Positions 4,418-31,004 of a stretch of 41,370 nt of DNA are shown in pieces. The notes beneath the pieces are model-generated. The model saw only the letters and a list, made by a program, of their open reading frames with translations. It did not search any database and was not told the DNA's origin. The position numbers and the translations under genes were made by a program. Location of the stretch: NCBI GenBank assembly GCA_964610445.1, contig CAZSVV010000001.1, forward strand, positions 19,246-60,615. The letters run 5' to 3'. Numbering within the stretch: the stretch's first letter is position 1; each line of letters begins with the position of its first letter. Origin of the DNA: an uncultured Pseudomonadales bacterium. Its GTDB lineage: Bacteria; Patescibacteriota; Microgenomatia; UBA1400; UBA12108.

Positions 4418-4854
4418 AAGAGTTTCTTAGCTTTGGTAAATACTTTAAGACATCCTTTACCGCAAAAATAGTGTCGCACGCCGCCATATTCGGCAGTATG
4501 ACGCGCCTTAGTAGGAGTGAGTAGCATGTGACAAATAGGATCTACTACCTTTGGCTCCGAGTCAGTTAACGGCTCTTCATTAGCAAAGTGGTCAACAAAT
4601 AGTGAAAGGTTGAGTAGCGTGTTATCAGTCAAAGAATAGTAGAGCTCTTTGCCCAGCTTTTTGGAGTGTACTAGTTTGCTAGCCTTTAGATACATTAGGT
4701 GCTGAGATGTTGCGGCTTGGCGCATGCCAGTCATCTGCACAATCTGATTTACAGTTAGCTCATGACCATGTAGTAAGCAAATAATCTCTAATCTACTTTT
4801 ATGTCCGAGAGCTTTAAATAGTTTGGCATTCTTTATGATTTCGGTAGTATTCAT
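4414..4854 (-). CDS. ArsR/SmtB-family winged-helix regulator fused to a C-terminal YHS/TRASH metal-binding domain
   Basis: 146 aa. The N-terminus reads [16 protein letters not shown]...[30 protein letters not shown] (ArsR HTH). The C-terminus reads DPICHMLL...[17 protein letters not shown] (YHS/TRASH Cys pattern). Overlaps the copA start by 4 nt. Confidence 0.8.
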
Positions 4855-19420: not shown

Positions 19421-20020
19421 ATGCAGATACGAGATCTATACGACAAGTACAACATAATGCCACAACTACGCGAGCATCAGCTAAGAGTTGGTGGAATCGC
19501 TAGGCTGATTACCGATGATCATGACAGCATCGTTACAGCACTAGTTCACGACATGGGGAATATAGTTAAGTTTGATCTGGATAACCCAGTCACTTTGATA
19601 AGCGATGTAGACAAATGGAAAAGAGAACAAGCACATGTTCGAAAAACTTATGGTCATGACGCTCACGAAGCAACATATGCGATCCTAAAAGAAGCGGGTT
19701 TGGATAAATACAACACACATCTAAGAGACGAGGGAAGAGCCTATGATAATGAAACTCTAGATATTAACTTTTTTGAGAGTATGTCTAAACCTGCTCTTTT
19801 TACTTTATATGGAGATATGAGAGTCAGTGTGGTTGGAGTAGTGAGCATGCAAGAAAGAATAGAAGACTTGGAGAGAAGATATGGAGCACCCAGAACAGAG
19901 TCTAAATGGGTAAACAAGCTCGAAGACTATATACAATCAATTGCAAGTATCGATGTGAGGTCCATTACTGAAGAGTCGGTGGAGCCACTTTTTGACGAGC
20001 TGTTGACAATGACCGTATAA
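19421..20020 (+). CDS. HD-superfamily phosphohydrolase-like protein
   Basis: 199 aa. An early His (REHQLRV) followed by LVHDMGN (the HD doublet). Confidence 0.5.
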   Translation: MQIRDLYDKYNIMPQLREHQLRVGGIARLITDDHDSIVTALVHDMGNIVKFDLDNPVTLISDVDKWKREQAHVRKTYGHDAHEATYAILKEAGLDKYNTHLRDEGRAYDNETLDINFFESMSKPALFTLYGDMRVSVVGVVSMQERIEDLERRYGAPRTESKWVNKLEDYIQSIASIDVRSITEESVEPLFDELLTMTV

Positions 20021-20033
20021 TGTAACTAATTGA

Positions 20034-20193
20034 AAAAGCGATGAAGGGGTCCCCACCCTAGAGCTGGATACGATGAGTATCCCGTAACTGTACGAGAAAC
20101 AGTAATTAAGTGGTAAGCAAGGTGGTACCGCGAGTAACCTCGCCCTTGTTCCCGACACCAAAAAGGTGTTAGGAATAGTGGCGAGGTTTTTTG
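20034..20193 (+). promoter_or_regulatory. T-box riboswitch leader controlling proS (transcription attenuation type)
   Basis: GCGAUGA GA-motif. T-box sequence AAGGUGGUACCGCG. Antiterminator CAAGG[UGGUACC]GCGAG-UAAC-CUCGC-CCUUG (20118-20148). Competing terminator AACCUCGCC...GGCGAGGUU (20136-20188) followed by a U-run. A Pro-codon-containing hairpin loop GUCCCCA lies at 20049-20055. Confidence 0.85.
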
Positions 20194-20224
20194 TTACAAA
20201 AATTATTAATAATTGGAGATAAAT

Positions 20225-21466
20225 ATGAAGTATTCAAAACTATTTAGTAAGACACTAAAGTCAGCACCGGCTAATGCTGACACGGTCAACCATAAACTAC
20301 TAGTGCAAGCTGGTTATGTGCGTCAAGTGATGGCGGGTGTTTATACCTACACTCCCCTTGGTCTTAGAGTGTTAAACAAAATAAGCAACATTATTCGTGA
20401 AGAGATGAACGAGATAGGTGGTCAAGAAGTACTCATGCCCCTTCTACACCCTAGTTCTATCTGGAAGCAAACAGGTGGCTGGGACAAGATCGATGTGCTA
20501 TTTAAAGTAAAAAGTCGTACAGGAAAAGACTACGCGCTAGCACAAAGTAACGAAGAGACCGTCACTCCTCTAGTTAAAGAGTGGATCCACAGCGAGCGCG
20601 ATCTCCCACTAGCGGTTTATCACATTAACGCTAAGTTTCGTGATGAGCTACGCAGCAAATCCGGGATACTCCGCGGACGCGAATTCCTAATGAAAGATAT
20701 GTATAGCTGGCACAGTAATCAAGCCGACTTTGATCGCTTTTACCAAATCGTAAAAGAGGCCTACTTTAAAATCTTTGACCGACTCGGACTATCCGCCAAA
20801 GCGACAGAAGCATCAGGAGGAGCATTTACCGAAAAAGTAAGTTATGAGTTTGAGGTACTATCTGATGCAGGGGAAGCTCATATCCTCCATTGCCCTAGCT
20901 GTAACTGGTGCGTGAACTCTGATGACATTACTACTTATAAAGTGGGTGATGAATGCCATAAATGTAAGGCAGGAAAGCTAGAATCAGCAAAAGCTGCTGA
21001 GTTAGGTAATGTCTTTGATCTAGGTACCAAGTACACCAAAGCATTTGATATTAGTGTCATAAATAGTGAGGGAGAGAAGATCTATCCGATCATGGGATGC
21101 TACGGGATTGGGATCTCGCGCACGATGGGAGTAATCGTTGAGACATTTAATGACGAACGAGGGATTATATGGCCTGAAACTGTTGCACCATTTAAAGTAC
21201 ATCTCGTGTCTCTAGCTGGCAAGAGTGAAGAAGTAGCTCGGCGAGCGGATGGAGTATATGCAGAACTAACGAAATTAGGCTTTGAAGTGCTATACGACGA
21301 GCGAGAAAATGTGGGTGCAGGAGCTAAGCTAGCAGATGCCGACCTACTAGGAATACCCTACCGCGTAGTCGTATCAGAAAAATCAGGCGAGCTTGTGGAG
21401 CTGAAAAAGAGAAACGAAAAGGAAGCCAAGTTGATTAGCCTAGCTGAACTAGTTAAGTCGCTCTAA
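20225..21466 (+). CDS. proS: Prolyl-tRNA synthetase, bacterial-type core lacking the INS editing domain
   Basis: N-terminus KYSKLFSKTLKSAPANADTVNHKLLVQAGYVRQVMAGVYTYTPLGLRVL. Motif 2 FRDELRSKSGILRGREFLMKDMYSWH. Motif 3 GCYGIGISR. C-terminal anticodon-binding domain present. Start set at ATG 20225 (GGAG 6 nt upstream); the track start at 20213 is TTG. Confidence 0.95.
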   Translation: MKYSKLFSKTLKSAPANADTVNHKLLVQAGYVRQVMAGVYTYTPLGLRVLNKISNIIREEMNEIGGQEVLMPLLHPSSIWKQTGGWDKIDVLFKVKSRTGKDYALAQSNEETVTPLVKEWIHSERDLPLAVYHINAKFRDELRSKSGILRGREFLMKDMYSWHSNQADFDRFYQIVKEAYFKIFDRLGLSAKATEASGGAFTEKVSYEFEVLSDAGEAHILHCPSCNWCVNSDDITTYKVGDECHKCKAGKLESAKAAELGNVFDLGTKYTKAFDISVINSEGEKIYPIMGCYGIGISRTMGVIVETFNDERGIIWPETVAPFKVHLVSLAGKSEEVARRADGVYAELTKLGFEVLYDERENVGAGAKLADADLLGIPYRVVVSEKSGELVELKKRNEKEAKLISLAELVKSL

Positions 21467-22771
21467 AACAGCGTCCCGACCTAGGATGAGCATGGACTCA
21501 GTGAGTGGAGGGCTAACTTTTTTGCCGGTAACTGCCAGGCGCATAGCAGCAAAGAATGGACCATTCTTCCAGCCCTTACCTTTAACTGCCTCGACGAGTG
21601 CTGTTTCTATCCCCTCTTTGGACCAGTCGCAACTACTTAGGATCTCTTTGGCTAGTTGGATATATAACACCTCATCAGTAGTTAGCTCGGGTCTAACCGG
21701 CTTACTAAAGAAGAACTCAGTAAGTGAGCTAAACTCGGAGAGCAAACTAATACGAGTCTTAATGAGTGGAATGATAGATAGAAGCAGCCCATCATTTGCA
21801 TCTGCTGGAGCGTACGGGCGGATGAGAGGGAGTAGCCCATTATCTGGGATCTGACGAATATATTGGCCATTAAAATAGTTTAGTTTGTCTATAAAGAACC
21901 TGGGGTTGGCATCCTGAAAACCGGAAGCGTCAAAATGCTCAACAAACTCGGGTAGCGTGTAGAGCTCGCGGTTATCTTTGGGGGCCCAGCCGAGGAGAGC
22001 CACAAAGTTGAGGAGAGCCTCCGGAAGGTATCCCTGTTTGAGATAATCCTCGCAGAACACACTATCTCTTCTTTTACTCAATTTTTTGCCTGTAGTTGGG
22101 GACATGATATCTGTCAAGTGGCCAATCGCTGGCATGGGTTTGTCGCCCCTAAGATAGTTGAGTACTAAGACATGGATCGGAGTGGAGGGCAACCAGTCAT
22201 GACCTCGTAGAATATGGGTGATGTTCATATCTAGATCATCGACCATCGCGGCGAGCGCGTAGGTTGGGAAAGTATCGGTCTTGAGCAAGGTTGCGTCGTA
22301 GACGGTATTACTATCCCAAGTAATGTCTTTTTTGTGGGCAAAATCGTGATAGGTAATCTTTTGATTATCTGGGACCCTCAGCTTGATAGCACCACTATTA
22401 AAGCCTTTATCCCTACATGGGTCACGCATTACTGTTGAGTAGCCATCGGTATGAGCATTCTTGGGTGGGCACTGGCAGTAGAAGGCATGGCCATCGCTAA
22501 GTAGTTTTTGGGCTGCAGCCTGATAGATCCCTGTCTTTTGCCTCTCTGATTGGATATAAAATTCGTCCCATGTAATACCAAATTTTTTCAGAACTATTTG
22601 GAGTGATTCTAATGCTCCTTCTACCTCTCTCTTTTGATCTGTGTCTTCGATCCTGAGGATAAAGTCCCCTCCCTCATGCCGAGCCATAGCATAGGCATAG
22701 AGAGCAGTGCGCAAGCTACCAATATGCAGGAATCCGGTGGGAGATGGGGCAAAACGAGTGCGAATAGTCAT
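21449..22771 (-). CDS. gltX: Glutamyl-tRNA synthetase
   Basis: RFAPSPTGFLHIGSLRTAL (HIGH-type motif), RIEDTD and KLSKR (KMSKS). 440 aa. Its 3' end overlaps the proS 3' end by 18 nt. Confidence 0.95.
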   Translation of the reverse strand: MTIRTRFAPSPTGFLHIGSLRTALYAYAMARHEGGDFILRIEDTDQKREVEGALESLQIVLKKFGITWDEFYIQSERQKTGIYQAAAQKLLSDGHAFYCQCPPKNAHTDGYSTVMRDPCRDKGFNSGAIKLRVPDNQKITYHDFAHKKDITWDSNTVYDATLLKTDTFPTYALAAMVDDLDMNITHILRGHDWLPSTPIHVLVLNYLRGDKPMPAIGHLTDIMSPTTGKKLSKRRDSVFCEDYLKQGYLPEALLNFVALLGWAPKDNRELYTLPEFVEHFDASGFQDANPRFFIDKLNYFNGQYIRQIPDNGLLPLIRPYAPADANDGLLLSIIPLIKTRISLLSEFSSLTEFFFSKPVRPELTTDEVLYIQLAKEILSSCDWSKEGIETALVEAVKGKGWKNGPFFAAMRLAVTGKKVSPPLTESMLILGRDAVLERLN

Positions 22772-22794: not shown

Positions 22795-23844
22795 ATGGCA
22801 ACACTCGGAGAGACTGCAATCGTCGCGCGAAAAGCGATCAAATTTGGGGCGATTGGACTCGTGGTCCTAATGATAGGCCGGGTAGTTGTGACCTCTGCAT
22901 ATACCTACTGGAAAACACTTCACCCTGACCCACCACCACCACCTGATGTAAAGTTTGGTAGATTGCCTAAGCTAGTGTTCCCCCAAAAGGAGCCGATCCC
23001 TATCCAATATAGCCTCGAAACTAGAACGGGCGCACTGCCAACTAATCTACCCACTCAGTTTACGGTCTACTTTATGCCGATCAAAAAACCGAGCCTACTT
23101 GCTTATGATGCCGCAAAGAACGTAGCAAATAGGCTAGATTTTATTGCAGAGCCGCTCAAACTATCTGAAGATACTTACCGCTGGGATGCTAGCGACCCAA
23201 TCCCGTCGACTTTTACTATAAATGTCATAACTGGTGCGTTTGTACTAGACCGTCGGTGGCAGGTCGAACCTTCGTATACTACCCCCAACTTAATCTTTAA
23301 TGACGAACAGGCAGAAGACAGGGTATTAAACATTTTATCGAGACTAGAGCTACTACCTGATGACATTAAAGAAGGTGAAGTCACGATGAACGAGCTCAAA
23401 GCAGACAAAGACCAGATAGTCACCGCTGTATCGAGATCGCAAGCTAACTTTGTGAGAGTGAACCTATATCGCAAGCCAGTTGAGGAAATACCTGTCGTAT
23501 ACCCTAGGAGCGATAGAGGTCCCATCTCGGTGATCCTGGCACTACAGAGAGATGAGGATAAACAGTTTGTAAATATAGACTATAACTACTATCCAGTAGA
23601 GCGAGAGACGAGTGCGGTCTATCCGATCATCTCGGCGGCCGAAGCATGGAAGAGACTCCAAGCAGGTAATGGGTATGTGGTTAATGTTAAACAAAATGTG
23701 GCTACCACAGTCGTGCGAGAGATCAGCATCGAATACTATGATGCTGAGGAACCACAACAATACCTACAACCTGTATATGTTTTTCGGGGTGATAATGATT
23801 TTGTCGCTTATGTCCCGGCGCTGTCAGATGCGTGGGTGGAATAA
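22795..23844 (+). CDS. Membrane-anchored hypothetical protein
   Basis: 349 aa. Single N-terminal TM helix followed by a PDPPPPPD linker and a soluble domain with no recognisable motif. Confidence 0.55.
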   Translation: MATLGETAIVARKAIKFGAIGLVVLMIGRVVVTSAYTYWKTLHPDPPPPPDVKFGRLPKLVFPQKEPIPIQYSLETRTGALPTNLPTQFTVYFMPIKKPSLLAYDAAKNVANRLDFIAEPLKLSEDTYRWDASDPIPSTFTINVITGAFVLDRRWQVEPSYTTPNLIFNDEQAEDRVLNILSRLELLPDDIKEGEVTMNELKADKDQIVTAVSRSQANFVRVNLYRKPVEEIPVVYPRSDRGPISVILALQRDEDKQFVNIDYNYYPVERETSAVYPIISAAEAWKRLQAGNGYVVNVKQNVATTVVREISIEYYDAEEPQQYLQPVYVFRGDNDFVAYVPALSDAWVE

Positions 23845-23849
23845 TTTCT

Positions 23850-24347
23850 TTAAGTTAGATTAGTTACCACAGGGTGCACTATCTTAATGTAATCGCGTGA
23901 ATACATTCCAATAGAGTAAGATCTATCTCCTGCGTTGAATACAATTTTTTCGTTAGCTAGTAGCTCAGAATCAGCGATAACTTCGAGATTAAAGAGGTTG
24001 CCAAATGGAGGCACACCTCCGGGTAATATCCCCCCAGTAATTTCTGATACTTCTTCGACTGTTGCGAAACGAATATCCTTGGCACTATAGATACTCTTAA
24101 CTTTGGCAGTATCAAAGCGACGATCACCAGGTATCACAATCATTACAAACTTTTTGTTCTGACTACTGATTTTGACACGAGCGATGATTGCTTTTGCACC
24201 TTGATGCAGAGTGTAGCCTGTCCGAACTTTTGCGGCCTCCTCACTTGTTTTGACAGGCTCGTGTTCAAAAGTCTCGAACCAACAATCATGCTCGCCTAAT
24301 AGTTCGCGGATCTCCTGGGTCGTAGGATGATATATTTTGTTAGACAT
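23850..24347 (-). CDS. YbaK/ProX/EbsC-family aminoacyl-tRNA trans-editing deacylase
   Basis: 165 aa. HQGAKAIIARV...FVMIVIPGDRRFD..KV...GGILPGGVPPFG matches the YbaK/ProRS-associated domain pattern (the conserved Lys region and the GxxPxG loop). Confidence 0.8.
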   Translation of the reverse strand: MSNKIYHPTTQEIRELLGEHDCWFETFEHEPVKTSEEAAKVRTGYTLHQGAKAIIARVKISSQNKKFVMIVIPGDRRFDTAKVKSIYSAKDIRFATVEEVSEITGGILPGGVPPFGNLFNLEVIADSELLANEKIVFNAGDRSYSIGMYSRDYIKIVHPVVTNLT

Positions 24348-24349
24348 AG

Positions 24350-25630
24350 TCAGGGCCTGAGTCTTTTGACGTCACGAGGGAGGAAAGTTGCCTCTTTGAC
24401 ACTAGGCAATCCTAGGATCTGGGCGATAATGCGCCCTGGGCCGATGCCAACTCCACCATGTGGTGGGACACCATACCTAAAGAAGCTAAGATAATCGGAG
24501 AGTCCTTCTTCGGTCAGACCTTTCTCGGCAGCTTGCGCCACTAGTTTGTCGATCCTGTGCTCACGCTGAGCGCCAGTTGTGATCTCGACTCCTTTGTAGA
24601 GTAAATCAAACCCTTTGGTTAAGCCAGTCTCCTCATCTCGCATGTGATAAAACGCACGGTGTGCTTTGGGGTAGTCGGTAATAAAGACAAACTCGCTCCC
24701 TGTCTCGTCTTTGACGATTTTGCATATTCCACGCTCTTCGTCGGGAGAGAGATCACCTTCTTTGTCACTAGTTATCCCAGCAGCTTTTAATTTATCTTTT
24801 GTCTCAGCTAGCGTGAGACGAGCAAATGGTACTTTGATTTCTTCTTCGATTAAGCCGGCTGACTTTAGCTTGGCAAAGCCTGATTTCAGCATAGCCTCCT
24901 CAGTATCCATGACATCATGATGACTCGTGATGTGTGCAATTTCAAAGTCCCAACCAGTAAACTCCGTCATGTGGCGGGTAGTAAAGCTAAGCTCCGCACG
25001 AAAGACCGGGCCGACCATGAAGACTTTTTCAAATCCGCTAGCTATCGCCATTTGTTTGTAGAACTGTGGTGATTGAGCAAGATATGCCTTGCCTTCAAAA
25101 TATTTGACCTCAAAGACCTCGGCACCACTCTCACTTGGTGCACTCATTAGTGCTGGTGAGTAGAGCTGAGTAAAGCCATTAGCACTAAAGTATTCTCTAA
25201 TCCCCTGTTCGAGCACTGTCCATACCTGAAAGATTTTTTGAGAATCAGGCTTACGCAAATCTAGCCAGCGATAGTCAAAGCGCTTGGTTACATCTACCTC
25301 TTCGGCACCTTTTTCGGCAACTACTGGGATCGGGAGTGGGAGCGATAAAACCTCTATCTTAATACTGCTTGCATCAATCTCGACACCTTCGGGGACCTGT
25401 TTACTCTCTTTGAGCAATCCCTCAACGCGAATCACTGACTCGACTGAGAGCTCTTTGATTGATTCAAAGACTTCTTTGTTCCAAGCTCCTGTTACTACCT
25501 GGATACTGCCACTAATATCTCGCACTCTCAAAAATGCGATCTTACCTTGGTTACGGATCGAGTGGACAAACCCTGCGATCGTGACAGTCTCACCTACTAA
25601 TTTAGTAACTTCACTAATGCTTTTGCGCAT
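24350..25630 (-). CDS. aspS: Aspartyl-tRNA synthetase, short archaeal/type-2 form (possibly non-discriminating)
   Basis: 426 aa. N-terminal OB fold. QSPQFYKQ, motif 2 FRAELSFTTRHMTEFTGWDFE, motif 3 GVPPHGGVGIGPGR, and the LPRDVKRLRP C-terminus. GAGGAG Shine-Dalgarno upstream. Confidence 0.9.
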   Translation of the reverse strand: MRKSISEVTKLVGETVTIAGFVHSIRNQGKIAFLRVRDISGSIQVVTGAWNKEVFESIKELSVESVIRVEGLLKESKQVPEGVEIDASSIKIEVLSLPLPIPVVAEKGAEEVDVTKRFDYRWLDLRKPDSQKIFQVWTVLEQGIREYFSANGFTQLYSPALMSAPSESGAEVFEVKYFEGKAYLAQSPQFYKQMAIASGFEKVFMVGPVFRAELSFTTRHMTEFTGWDFEIAHITSHHDVMDTEEAMLKSGFAKLKSAGLIEEEIKVPFARLTLAETKDKLKAAGITSDKEGDLSPDEERGICKIVKDETGSEFVFITDYPKAHRAFYHMRDEETGLTKGFDLLYKGVEITTGAQREHRIDKLVAQAAEKGLTEEGLSDYLSFFRYGVPPHGGVGIGPGRIIAQILGLPSVKEATFLPRDVKRLRP

Positions 25631-25662
25631 ATTACTCCTCTAATTTTTGGATTTTGGAGCAT

Positions 25663-25815
25663 AAAAAAACCGCCCCAAAACCCTATTTTTGAAAGGGTCC
25701 TGTCGGACGGTGCCACCTTATCTAAACTTATTACAGCTATAACGGGCTTAACCGGTTCCAGCCTGCCTGCCGGCAGGCAGGCTCGTCTTTTGTCAGAAGA
25801 CAGCTGTTATGTATT
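25663..25815 (-). promoter_or_regulatory. T-box riboswitch leader controlling aspS (transcription attenuation type)
   Basis: Read on the minus strand. Antiterminator AAGG[UGGCACC]GUCC-GACA-GGAC-CCUU (25693-25719). Competing terminator ACCGUCC...ACCCU-loop-AGGGU...GGGCGGU plus U7 (25663-25711). Hairpin GUCUU-CUGACAA-AAGAC (25785-25801) presents GAC. A 24-nt perfect palindrome helix lies at 25760-25783. Confidence 0.8.
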
Positions 25816-25836
25816 TGTACGTGGAGGATAACAAAA

Positions 25837-30724: not shown

Positions 30725-31004
30725 GCCGAATGTGGTTGGTGGGTGATCGGGCGAGTCGCAAGACGAGTCAGGAAAGTCCAGACAGCAGAGTGCAGGGTGG
30801 GTAGCGTAAGCTATCACGGGTAACCGCTAGTTTAGAGCAACAGTGACGAACCGATTTAGTTCGGGTGAAACGGGCAATCCTCCCCGCTGCAACCGACGAC
30901 TGGGACGACTAAGACAGTAGCACTCCTGAGTCCCGAAGATTGCGGGCATTAGAGAAATGATCGCACTAAAAACAGAATCTGGCTTATGCCAACCACAGCT
31001 CGGC
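30725..31004 (+). ncRNA. rnpB: RNase P RNA (bacterial), unusually short (~280 nt)
   Basis: Universally conserved P4 strands GGAAAGUCC (30770s) and ACAGAAUCUGGCUUA (30971-30985). P1 pairing GCCGA-A-UGUGGUUGG / CCAACCACA-GC-UCGGC closes the molecule. Confidence 0.85.

Follow-up and report, generated by a model that had tools for sequence, protein, structure and literature searches.

A miniature terminator-coupled proline T-box leader predicted upstream of proS in a Microgenomates genome

The proS locus and its leader

The stretch of DNA analysed here, referred to as the window, comprises 41,370 nucleotides (nt) of contig CAZSVV010000001.1 (assembly GCA_964610445.1, positions 19,246 to 60,615) from an uncultured bacterium. 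It carries a proS gene, which encodes a prolyl-tRNA synthetase (ProRS), and directly upstream of this gene a leader with the parts of a T-box riboswitch, several of them strongly reduced. A first reading of the letters alone (the original prediction) had proposed a T-box with an ultrashort Stem I, a proline codon in its terminal loop and an intrinsic terminator, and every sequence feature that it listed was found where it had been placed. For comparison, 176 loci around relatives of proS (L001–L176) were collected from GTDB genomes, JGI metagenomes and individual contigs.

In a protein comparison, the ProRS of the window is 100% identical to one metagenomic protein and 87–93% identical to proteins named Candidatus Woesebacteria or Microgenomates. 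The reduced-genome lineage suspected at first is thus borne out: by ProRS identity the window belongs to the Candidate Phyla Radiation (CPR), in the Microgenomates/Woesebacteria. The features of the locus are as follows, with the evidence for each in parentheses; RF00230 is the Rfam T-box model.

19992–20021, + strand: sigma-70-type promoter, TTGACG-18 nt-TATAAT (11 of 12 consensus positions matched)
20037–20065, + strand: short Stem I (RF00230 alignment, minimum free energy (MFE) fold of 20027–20150, RNAalifold on a structure-naive alignment, compensatory changes)
20052–20055, + strand: specifier CCC (proline, 20052–54) and conserved purine A20055 (CCC and a purine in 13 of 13 leaders; proS, or proC then proS, downstream)
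20066–20082, + strand: miniature Stem II, 17 nt (compensatory changes at 6 of 6 pairs)
20083–20103, + strand: Stem IIA/B pseudoknot with F-box-like CCGUAA (IIB by covariation, IIA by RF00230 homology)
20104–20117, + strand: single-stranded linker AAUUAAGUGGUAAG, 14 nt (RF00230 alignment, leader alignments)
20118–20148, + strand: T-box antiterminator, CAAGG[UGGUACC]GCGAG-UAAC-CUCGC-CCUUG (sequence, RF00230, folding at -9.5 kcal/mol, covariation of helices A1 and A2)
20136–20192, + strand: intrinsic terminator, a long hairpin at 20136–20188, extendable to 20131–20192, then U6 (folding)
20215–20227, + strand: Shine-Dalgarno sequence GGAGA (20215–19) and proS start codon (20225–27) (sequence, folding)
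20225–21466, + strand: proS, a bacterial-type ProRS of 413 amino acids without the INS editing domain (NCBIfam, protein comparison)

The -10 box of the promoter (20016–20021) overlaps the stop codon of the upstream open reading frame (ORF), an HD-domain ORF at 19421–20020. The implied transcript would start at about 20028, approximately 9 nt 5' of the Stem I base. A TTGAC...TATAAT block also lies 5' of the leader in L161, L163, L165–L169 and L173, and L170 has the promoter block with a variant -10 box, UACAAU. A conventional long Stem I hidden within ORF 19421–20020, which the original prediction had named as a finding that would count against it, was ruled out, because the promoter sits at the stop codon of that ORF and leaves only the ~9 nt before Stem I.

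Identification of the leader as a T-box

The Rfam scan of the window at gathering thresholds found no T-box, only a tRNA-Gln. E-value thresholds were used besides, and with these RF00230 matched positions 20032–20150 at 49.1 bits, with an E-value of 6.1e-10 in a search of 401 nt and 6.3e-8 in the whole window. The covariance-model search that had been suggested as a check therefore gave a significant match, yet one under the curated gathering score of 93 bits. In the alignment, 76 consensus Stem I positions are reduced to 6 nt, 12 positions of the Stem II region are deleted, and 0 of 17 Stem III positions are filled; the score stays below 93 because the 76 Stem I positions and the whole of Stem III are absent. 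Posterior probability is high for the aligned K-turn, T-box sequence and Stem IIA positions.

The MFE of the leader has a z-score of -5.4, and 0 of 200 shuffled sequences fold as well. The core AGGTGGNACCG occurs in 2 copies in the window, with 0.05 expected. Sequence, covariance model and folding together indicate that 20037–20192 is a T-box leader.

Structure of the leader

Stem I begins with a base helix of three pairs, AGC (20037–39) with GCU (20063–65). Above it, the GAUGA of a K-turn (20040–44) faces AGA (20060–62). A K-turn-like GA motif leading into Stem I had been part of the original prediction, and at the level of sequence it is upheld, since these positions align with the GA motif of RF00230. 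The upper helix has 4 bp (20045–48 or 20046–49, with 20056–59) and the C-rich apical loop has 6–7 nt (20049/50–20055). The thermodynamic fold gives AGGG/CCCU and a 7-nt loop, GUCCCCA. The structure-naive comparative fold gives GGGG/CCCU with a basal G-U pair, and the loop is then 6 nt long (UCCCCA) in the window but 7 nt long in 6 of the 8 leaders of that alignment. In both folds, CCC-A (20052–20055) forms the 3' edge of the loop. The claim of a proline codon in a terminal heptaloop thus holds for the codon and its apical position, but the loop has 6 nt in the comparative fold. The expected partner of the CCC codon is a tRNA-Pro with the anticodon GGG. Stem I has neither an AG bulge nor a distal loop, and the RF00230 alignment agrees with the earlier observation that no such platform is visible.

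Stem II is a 6-bp helix, GGAUAC/GUAUCC, closed by the pentaloop GAUGA (20072–76). There is no linker to Stem I; Stem II directly abuts it, as the geometry of a K-turn requires. There is no canonical S-turn, that is, no internal AGUA/GAA loop. In the pseudoknot that follows, IIA pairs CGU (20083–85) with ACG (20092–94), and IIB pairs ACUGU (20087–91) with ACAGU (20099–20103). The two further hairpins that had been predicted, at 20066–20082 and 20087–20103, are both present, and can now be described as the miniature Stem II and as Stem IIB of a IIA/B pseudoknot.

The linker occupies the place of Stem III, which is absent from the window leader; AAGU within it (20108–11) is kept in most relatives. 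In the antiterminator, CAAGG[UGGUACC]GCGAG...CUCGCCCUUG, helices A1 (20118–22/20144–48) and A2 (20130–34/20139–43, loop UAAC) are separated by a 7-nt bulge (20123–29) with UGGN at its 5' edge. The UGGU of the bulge (20123–26) is complementary to the ACCA end of a tRNA with A73, and A73 is the discriminator base of bacterial tRNA-Pro. The antiterminator had been called canonical, and sequence, RF00230 and folding all agree with this.

The terminator arms, AACCUCGCC (20136–20144) and GGCGAGGUU (20180–20188), re-use the 3' strands of A2 and A1. The U-run consists of six U (20187–20192), the first two of which are able to pair with A20136 and A20137. The arms of the 9-bp terminator stem are therefore those first described, but the U-run does not simply follow the stem, as two of its six U overlap the stem arm. 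Measured from the Stem I base to the last antiterminator position, the sensor is ~112 nt long.

In the MFE structure of the terminator state, GUGGUA of the linker (20110–15) can pair with UACCGC (20126–31), a segment that runs from the 3' part of the T-box bulge into the beginning of A2. This possible helper helix occurs in window-type leaders only and is not kept in the other subtype.

Folding energetics and proposed mechanism

At its MFE of -31.8 kcal/mol, the nascent RNA, 20027–20150, folds into Stem I, Stem II, IIB and the antiterminator and nothing else. The antiterminator by itself is worth -9.5 kcal/mol, and the terminator -31.5 to -36 kcal/mol (-36 for 20130–20193); the full leader folds into the terminator. 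Folding had been suggested as a check, and it placed the antiterminator in the nascent RNA and the terminator in the full leader. An imbalance of this kind is expected of a T-box whose default state is off and whose antiterminator must be stabilised by tRNA.

The proposed mechanism follows established T-box function. During transcription, the anticodon of uncharged tRNA-Pro (expected to be GGG) would pair with CCC at 20052–54, which the very short Stem I presents on the 3' side of its apical loop. Next, the same tRNA would pair through its free ACCA end with UGGU at 20123–26 in the 7-nt bulge. This second contact would stabilise the weak antiterminator against the stronger terminator, and RNA polymerase would read on into proS. 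With prolyl-tRNA the contact at the 3' end would be impossible, the terminator would form, and transcription would stop at the U-run. In such a model, control in the window would be purely transcriptional.

It is likely, in our judgement by a wide measure, that the proS leader (~20028 to 20192) acts as a functional tRNA-Pro-responsive T-box that controls transcription termination. The original proposal – an ultrashort architecture joined to transcription termination at proS – is supported, and none of the observations that it had listed as telling against it was made.

Related leaders

A motif scan for the T-box core upstream of proS was run over loci L001–L160. In this simple scan, most of these CPR proS genes had no T-box core upstream, so the proline T-box is not a general feature of CPR proS genes. 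Twelve further distinct proline leaders were found in Microgenomates and other CPR (L161, L163, L165, L167–L170, L173, L081, L007, L031 and L082), and the ProRS proteins of these loci are 48–93% identical to that of the window. Close relatives without the leader also exist – L089, L171, L172 and L174 (ProRS 72–81% identical) have the same synteny and no leader at all – so the proline leader is patchy and dispensable. All of the relatives' leaders score below the Rfam threshold, and six are undetected at E ≤ 0.01. Standard annotation would therefore miss this class of leader. As annotation at Rfam thresholds systematically misses CPR leaders, T-boxes are probably distributed more widely than current records show.

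In all 13 leaders, the 3' edge of the Stem I loop is formed by CCC and a purine; the loop is apical in 12 of them and internal in L082. The loop sequences are GUCCCCA or UCCCCA, UUCCCCG, UUUCCCG, AUCCCCA and AUCCCA. Whether the loop triplet remains a proline codon in relatives was a test set by the original prediction, and CCC is kept in 12 of the 12 related leaders. A specifier register at loop positions 3–5, as in the ileS and aspS loops described below, was tried and rejected: it would read UCC (serine) in six of the proline leaders. The register of codon, purine and 3' strand gives CCC in all of the proline leaders and agrees with the internal-loop form in L082.

The L082 leader (576–1150) has a Stem I of intermediate length, with CCC-A in an internal specifier loop (...GAGAA-CCC-A) below a short distal hairpin, and this form settles the order of the register: first the codon, next the purine, last the 3' strand. 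From its sequence, the leader looks intermediate, in evolutionary terms, between long and ultrashort forms. The L082 T-box precedes a small zinc-ribbon-like ORF (~62 amino acids, four CxxC-type cysteine pairs), and a second hairpin lies before proS.

An independent link of the leader to proline comes from L081 (1647–4251), where proC (pyrroline-5-carboxylate reductase), a tRNA_bind gene and proS lie in one operon that begins with the proline T-box. The L081 leader also has an insertion of ~90 nt with an extra terminator-like hairpin (AUCCACCGAAAGGUGGAU then U6) upstream of the T-box sequence. Among the relatives, a Stem III hairpin is clear only in L031.

The bulge contains UGGU in 13 of 13 leaders. 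All 13 also have a G+C-rich terminator (approximately -21 to -43 kcal/mol) whose stem takes up the 3' strand of the antiterminator and is followed by 5–7 U, so the coupling of antiterminator and intrinsic terminator first noted in the window recurs in every relative. A G+C-rich stem directly followed by such a U-run is a hallmark of intrinsic termination, and this argues against a different role for the hairpin, in which it would act mainly on translation or mRNA stability, as a sequestrator or processing site. Such a role would be in keeping with other short-Stem-I T-boxes, which are mostly translational (PMC10482949). It would also suit L081 (1860–1891) and L007 (2620–2653), where the Shine-Dalgarno sequence is part of the terminator's 3' arm and the start codon comes directly after the U-run; the hairpin would block ribosome binding there too, and in these two loci a single structure could stop transcription as well as translation. 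The window's Shine-Dalgarno sequence lies 22 nt past the U-run in A/U-rich, unstructured surroundings and is neither paired nor sequestered in the folding of the leader. We regard a mainly translational or processing role as very unlikely.

Seven of the relatives (L161 at 2149–2484, L167, L168, L170, L173, L007 and L081) have a PF01588 tRNA_bind gene between the T-box and proS. It encodes a Trbp111/CsaA-like protein of 111 amino acids, and one of the relatives that bear it has a ProRS 93% identical to that of the window. Trbp111-type proteins bind the outer corner of tRNA, and a protein helper of this kind could replace the elbow platform and S-turn of other T-boxes, as could an L7Ae-type K-turn binder; K-turn binding proteins may assist T-boxes, according to a review. 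There is no tRNA_bind gene in the 41 kb of the window, however, and the leaders of L163, L165 and L169 also lack one. The co-regulation is more simply accounted for if the tRNA_bind protein is a cofactor of a minimal ProRS, co-regulated by the T-box, which it may be. To our knowledge, no T-box needs a protein. A switch that depends on a protein helper is accordingly an improbable explanation.

Covariation

A MAFFT alignment of 11 leaders (alignment A2) was set aside because Stem I of L167, Stem II of L031 and the antiterminator of L007 were misaligned in it. A structure-naive MAFFT alignment of eight leaders (alignment A3) was used for a covariance model (R1), and the leaders were realigned with this model (alignment A4). 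The covariance model from eight leaders retrieves all of the others, at 31–139 bits.

Alignment A4 is imperfect for L007 and L081, and its pair counts lean to the model to which it was fitted. In it, the paired share of cells is 94.9%, and compensatory changes are seen at 22 of 30 base pairs; none of 500 shuffles does as well, and slid controls pair at 29–45%. RNAalifold was run on A3, since A4 was fitted to the model, and it returned the same five helices, with compensatory changes in 14 of 26 pairs. The covariation of the helices, which the original prediction had asked of related leaders, is thus seen with and without the fitted alignment. Compensatory changes affect 6 of 6 pairs in Stem II and 4 of 5 pairs in IIB, and both A1 and A2 covary. 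Helix IIA (CGU/ACG) is conserved and invariant; its support is homology to RF00230, not covariation.

These changes also bear on the possibility that the leader is the decaying relic of a canonical T-box, either a constitutive leaky terminator or without function. A relic might be expected to show the patchy distribution described above, with clean absence in close relatives, and a sub-threshold Rfam score. It would preserve neither pairing nor codon, whereas the leaders have compensatory changes across their helices, an invariant specifier, UGGU and GAYRA loop, and a reduced architecture that is kept down to 48% ProRS identity. A relic is in our view scarcely credible.

The Stem II pentaloop

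The loop of Stem II is GAUGA in 11 of the 13 leaders, GACGA in L167 and GAUAA in L082, or GAYRA overall. In a review, the S-turn is described as a purine string, A39-A38-A69-G70-A71, with G37. The GA-Y-RA loop could retain part of this string. The specifier of the Nocardia farcinica ileS leader is at nucleotides 16–18, with the purine at 19 (review). Counted from the first nucleotide of Stem I, CCC in the window is at 16–18 and the GAUGA loop at 36–40; the two sets of numbers are comparable only if the published count, too, begins at the Stem I base. By analogy, the GAYRA pentaloop may be a collapsed S-turn or a GNRA-like purine stack, level with the codon, that reads the codon-anticodon helix from its minor groove. 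It would then sit beside that helix, in the manner of the S-turn of Stem II in the ileS T-boxes of Actinobacteria. This is a tentative proposal, with the odds somewhat against it.

Comparison with known T-box classes

T-boxes fall into four classes; a long Stem I marks classes I and II, which in general control transcription, and T-boxes with a short Stem I act "mostly" on translation (PMC10482949). According to reviews, the elbow platform of a long Stem I is what transcriptional T-boxes "generally require", because tRNA has to be bound before the polymerase gets to the terminator, and the platform is argued to be essential on these kinetic grounds (PMC7583486); the versions with a short Stem I are said to be translational switches dependent on the S-turn of Stem II (PMC7583486, PMC10482949). 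In the Class III design, a short Stem I with the specifier in its apical loop is joined by a K-turn, a Stem II and a pseudoknot (PMC10482949; PMC7583486). A binding affinity of about 24 nM has been reported for Class III.

The window leader is closest in outline to the Class III ileS T-boxes of Nocardia farcinica and Mycobacterium tuberculosis / M. smegmatis, a likeness drawn from published descriptions of these leaders. Shared features are the short Stem I without the elbow-binding double T-loop, the apical-loop specifier followed by a purine, the basal K-turn with abutting Stem II, the IIA/B pseudoknot and the UGGN bulge. Unlike these leaders, that of the window has an intrinsic terminator and not a Shine-Dalgarno sequestrator, a 17-nt hairpin under a GAYRA pentaloop takes the place of a long Stem II with an internal S-turn, and there is no Stem III. 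It also differs in amino acid and gene (proline, CCC, proS) and in its host, a CPR (Microgenomates) bacterium and not one of the Actinobacteria.

With Class I, represented by Bacillus subtilis tyrS and the RF00230 consensus, the window leader shares the K-turn, the F-box-like pseudoknot, the T-box sequence AAGGUGGUACCGCG, a mutually exclusive antiterminator and terminator with a U-run, and an aminoacyl-tRNA synthetase target. It lacks the specifier internal loop, the AG bulge and the distal loop (the interdigitated double T-loop for the tRNA elbow), as well as the S-turn arm of Stem II and all 17 Stem III positions, and it scores 49 bits against a cut-off of 93. Class IV (Actinomyces odontolyticus ileS) resembles the L082 leader in its intermediate Stem I, internal-loop specifier and lack of an elbow platform; the window leader differs in having no distal hairpin at all, and L082 in having a terminator and not a sequestrator. 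The Class II glycine T-boxes (B. subtilis glyQS) are likewise compact and transcriptional and lack one reinforcement of decoding, as glyQS has no Stem II domain. However, glyQS retains a long Stem I with elbow platform and Stem III, whereas the window leader has neither and keeps a vestigial Stem II and a pseudoknot.

Proline specifiers are also found in the proBA and proI T-boxes of Bacillus, which act by transcription antitermination and are full-length Class I leaders on biosynthetic genes. The window, by comparison, has a miniature leader on a synthetase gene, and L081 has one on proC and proS.

The short-Stem-I model of TBDB has been applied to Actinobacteria and to Rfam-detected leaders only, and a 2008 survey reported T-boxes in Firmicutes, Actinobacteria, Chloroflexi, Deinococcus-Thermus and a few Proteobacteria. 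Full-text searches with the names of CPR taxa found no relevant paper on T-boxes in these taxa. The combination of a short Stem I and a terminator is unusual, though not necessarily without precedent. The proS leader is a miniature, terminator-coupled proline T-box in Microgenomates.

Several points weigh against a working switch. The RF00230 score of 49.1 bits is under the curated cut-off, the higher covariation counts come from an alignment fitted to the model, and four syntenic relatives do without the leader. No tRNA-Pro gene was found in the window or in the 176 loci, so the GGG anticodon and A73 are assumed. Both of the known reinforcements of the three-base codon-anticodon contact, the elbow platform and the canonical S-turn, are absent, and the elbow platform is held to be necessary for co-transcriptional function (PMC7583486). 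Without these reinforcements, the capture of tRNA may lack sufficient affinity or speed.

The family breaks two associations together – that of a long Stem I with transcription, and that of a short Stem I with translation and the S-turn. It may, although this is a speculative step that we would not yet rely on, represent the smallest natural T-box design: a co-transcriptional sensor of ~112 nt without elbow contact, canonical S-turn or Stem III, with GAYRA as its minor-groove reader, used for several amino acids in CPR (proline, aspartate and isoleucine). If so, it would contradict the view that transcriptional T-boxes need an elbow platform for fast capture of tRNA, and a major uncultivated bacterial radiation would join the range of tRNA-sensing riboswitches. 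The kinetic argument is directly testable with a natural 112-nt sensor, and the GAYRA pentaloop is a specific, mutable candidate for a replacement of the S-turn. A compact sensor of tRNA charging would also be useful for synthetic biology.

Other short-Stem-I leaders: aspS and ileS

The window contains a second leader of interest, in front of a gene for a non-discriminating AspRS (24350–25630, - strand; NCBIfam, 449 bits).

25631–25836, - strand: candidate short-Stem-I T-box and terminator before the AspRS gene (own covariance model, 15.5 bits, E 0.1)

Its Stem I has 5 bp, GUCUU[CUGACAA]AAGAC (25801–25785), with GAC (aspartate) at 25794–92, and a 9-bp hairpin comes next. The UGGC of its core, AAGGUGGCACCG, implies G73, which is the discriminator of tRNA-Asp, and the terminator is followed by U7 (25669–63). 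RF00230 does not match this leader even at E ≤ 10. It is absent from the syntenic loci L175 and L176, which have a gap of only 16 nt at this place, and it has no comparative support. On its sequence, the aspS leader is a candidate for a second short-Stem-I T-box with a terminator.

In L037 (Moraniibacteria, 4443–4676), an ileS leader combines an intrinsic terminator with a short Stem I (loop AUAUCAA, which contains AUC) and a long Stem II. The UGGC of its bulge implies G73, although bacterial tRNA-Ile usually has A73. The pairing of a short Stem I and a terminator is thus seen in CPR for at least two amino acids and probably for three. The ultrashort architecture had been predicted on a synthetase gene different from ileS; this holds for proS, but the architecture is not unique to it, given the aspS candidate and the ileS leader of L037.

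Neighbouring genes

The gene for a free-standing YbaK-like homologue of Cys-tRNA(Pro) deacylase (164 amino acids, 23850–24347, - strand) lies 2.4 kb from proS. With a ProRS that has no INS domain, editing appears to have been split off to this protein, in trans.

The 3' ends of proS (+ strand) and a convergent GluRS-type gene (21449–22771, - strand) share 18 nt (21449–21466), and because of this overlap there is no space for a terminator between the two genes. An ORF of 349 amino acids at 22795–23844 (+ strand) has no match in Pfam or NCBIfam. In nearly all syntenic relatives, an ORF of the same length occupies the same place, between gltX and the ybaK-like or aspS gene; it encodes a conserved protein of unknown function within an aminoacyl-tRNA synthetase gene cluster.

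The window also encodes a class A bacterial RNase P RNA (30731–31001, + strand) of only 271 nt, which matches a model of 367 positions end to end. Its score, 83.6 bits, is under the gathering score of 100, and it appears to be a reduced form of this RNA.

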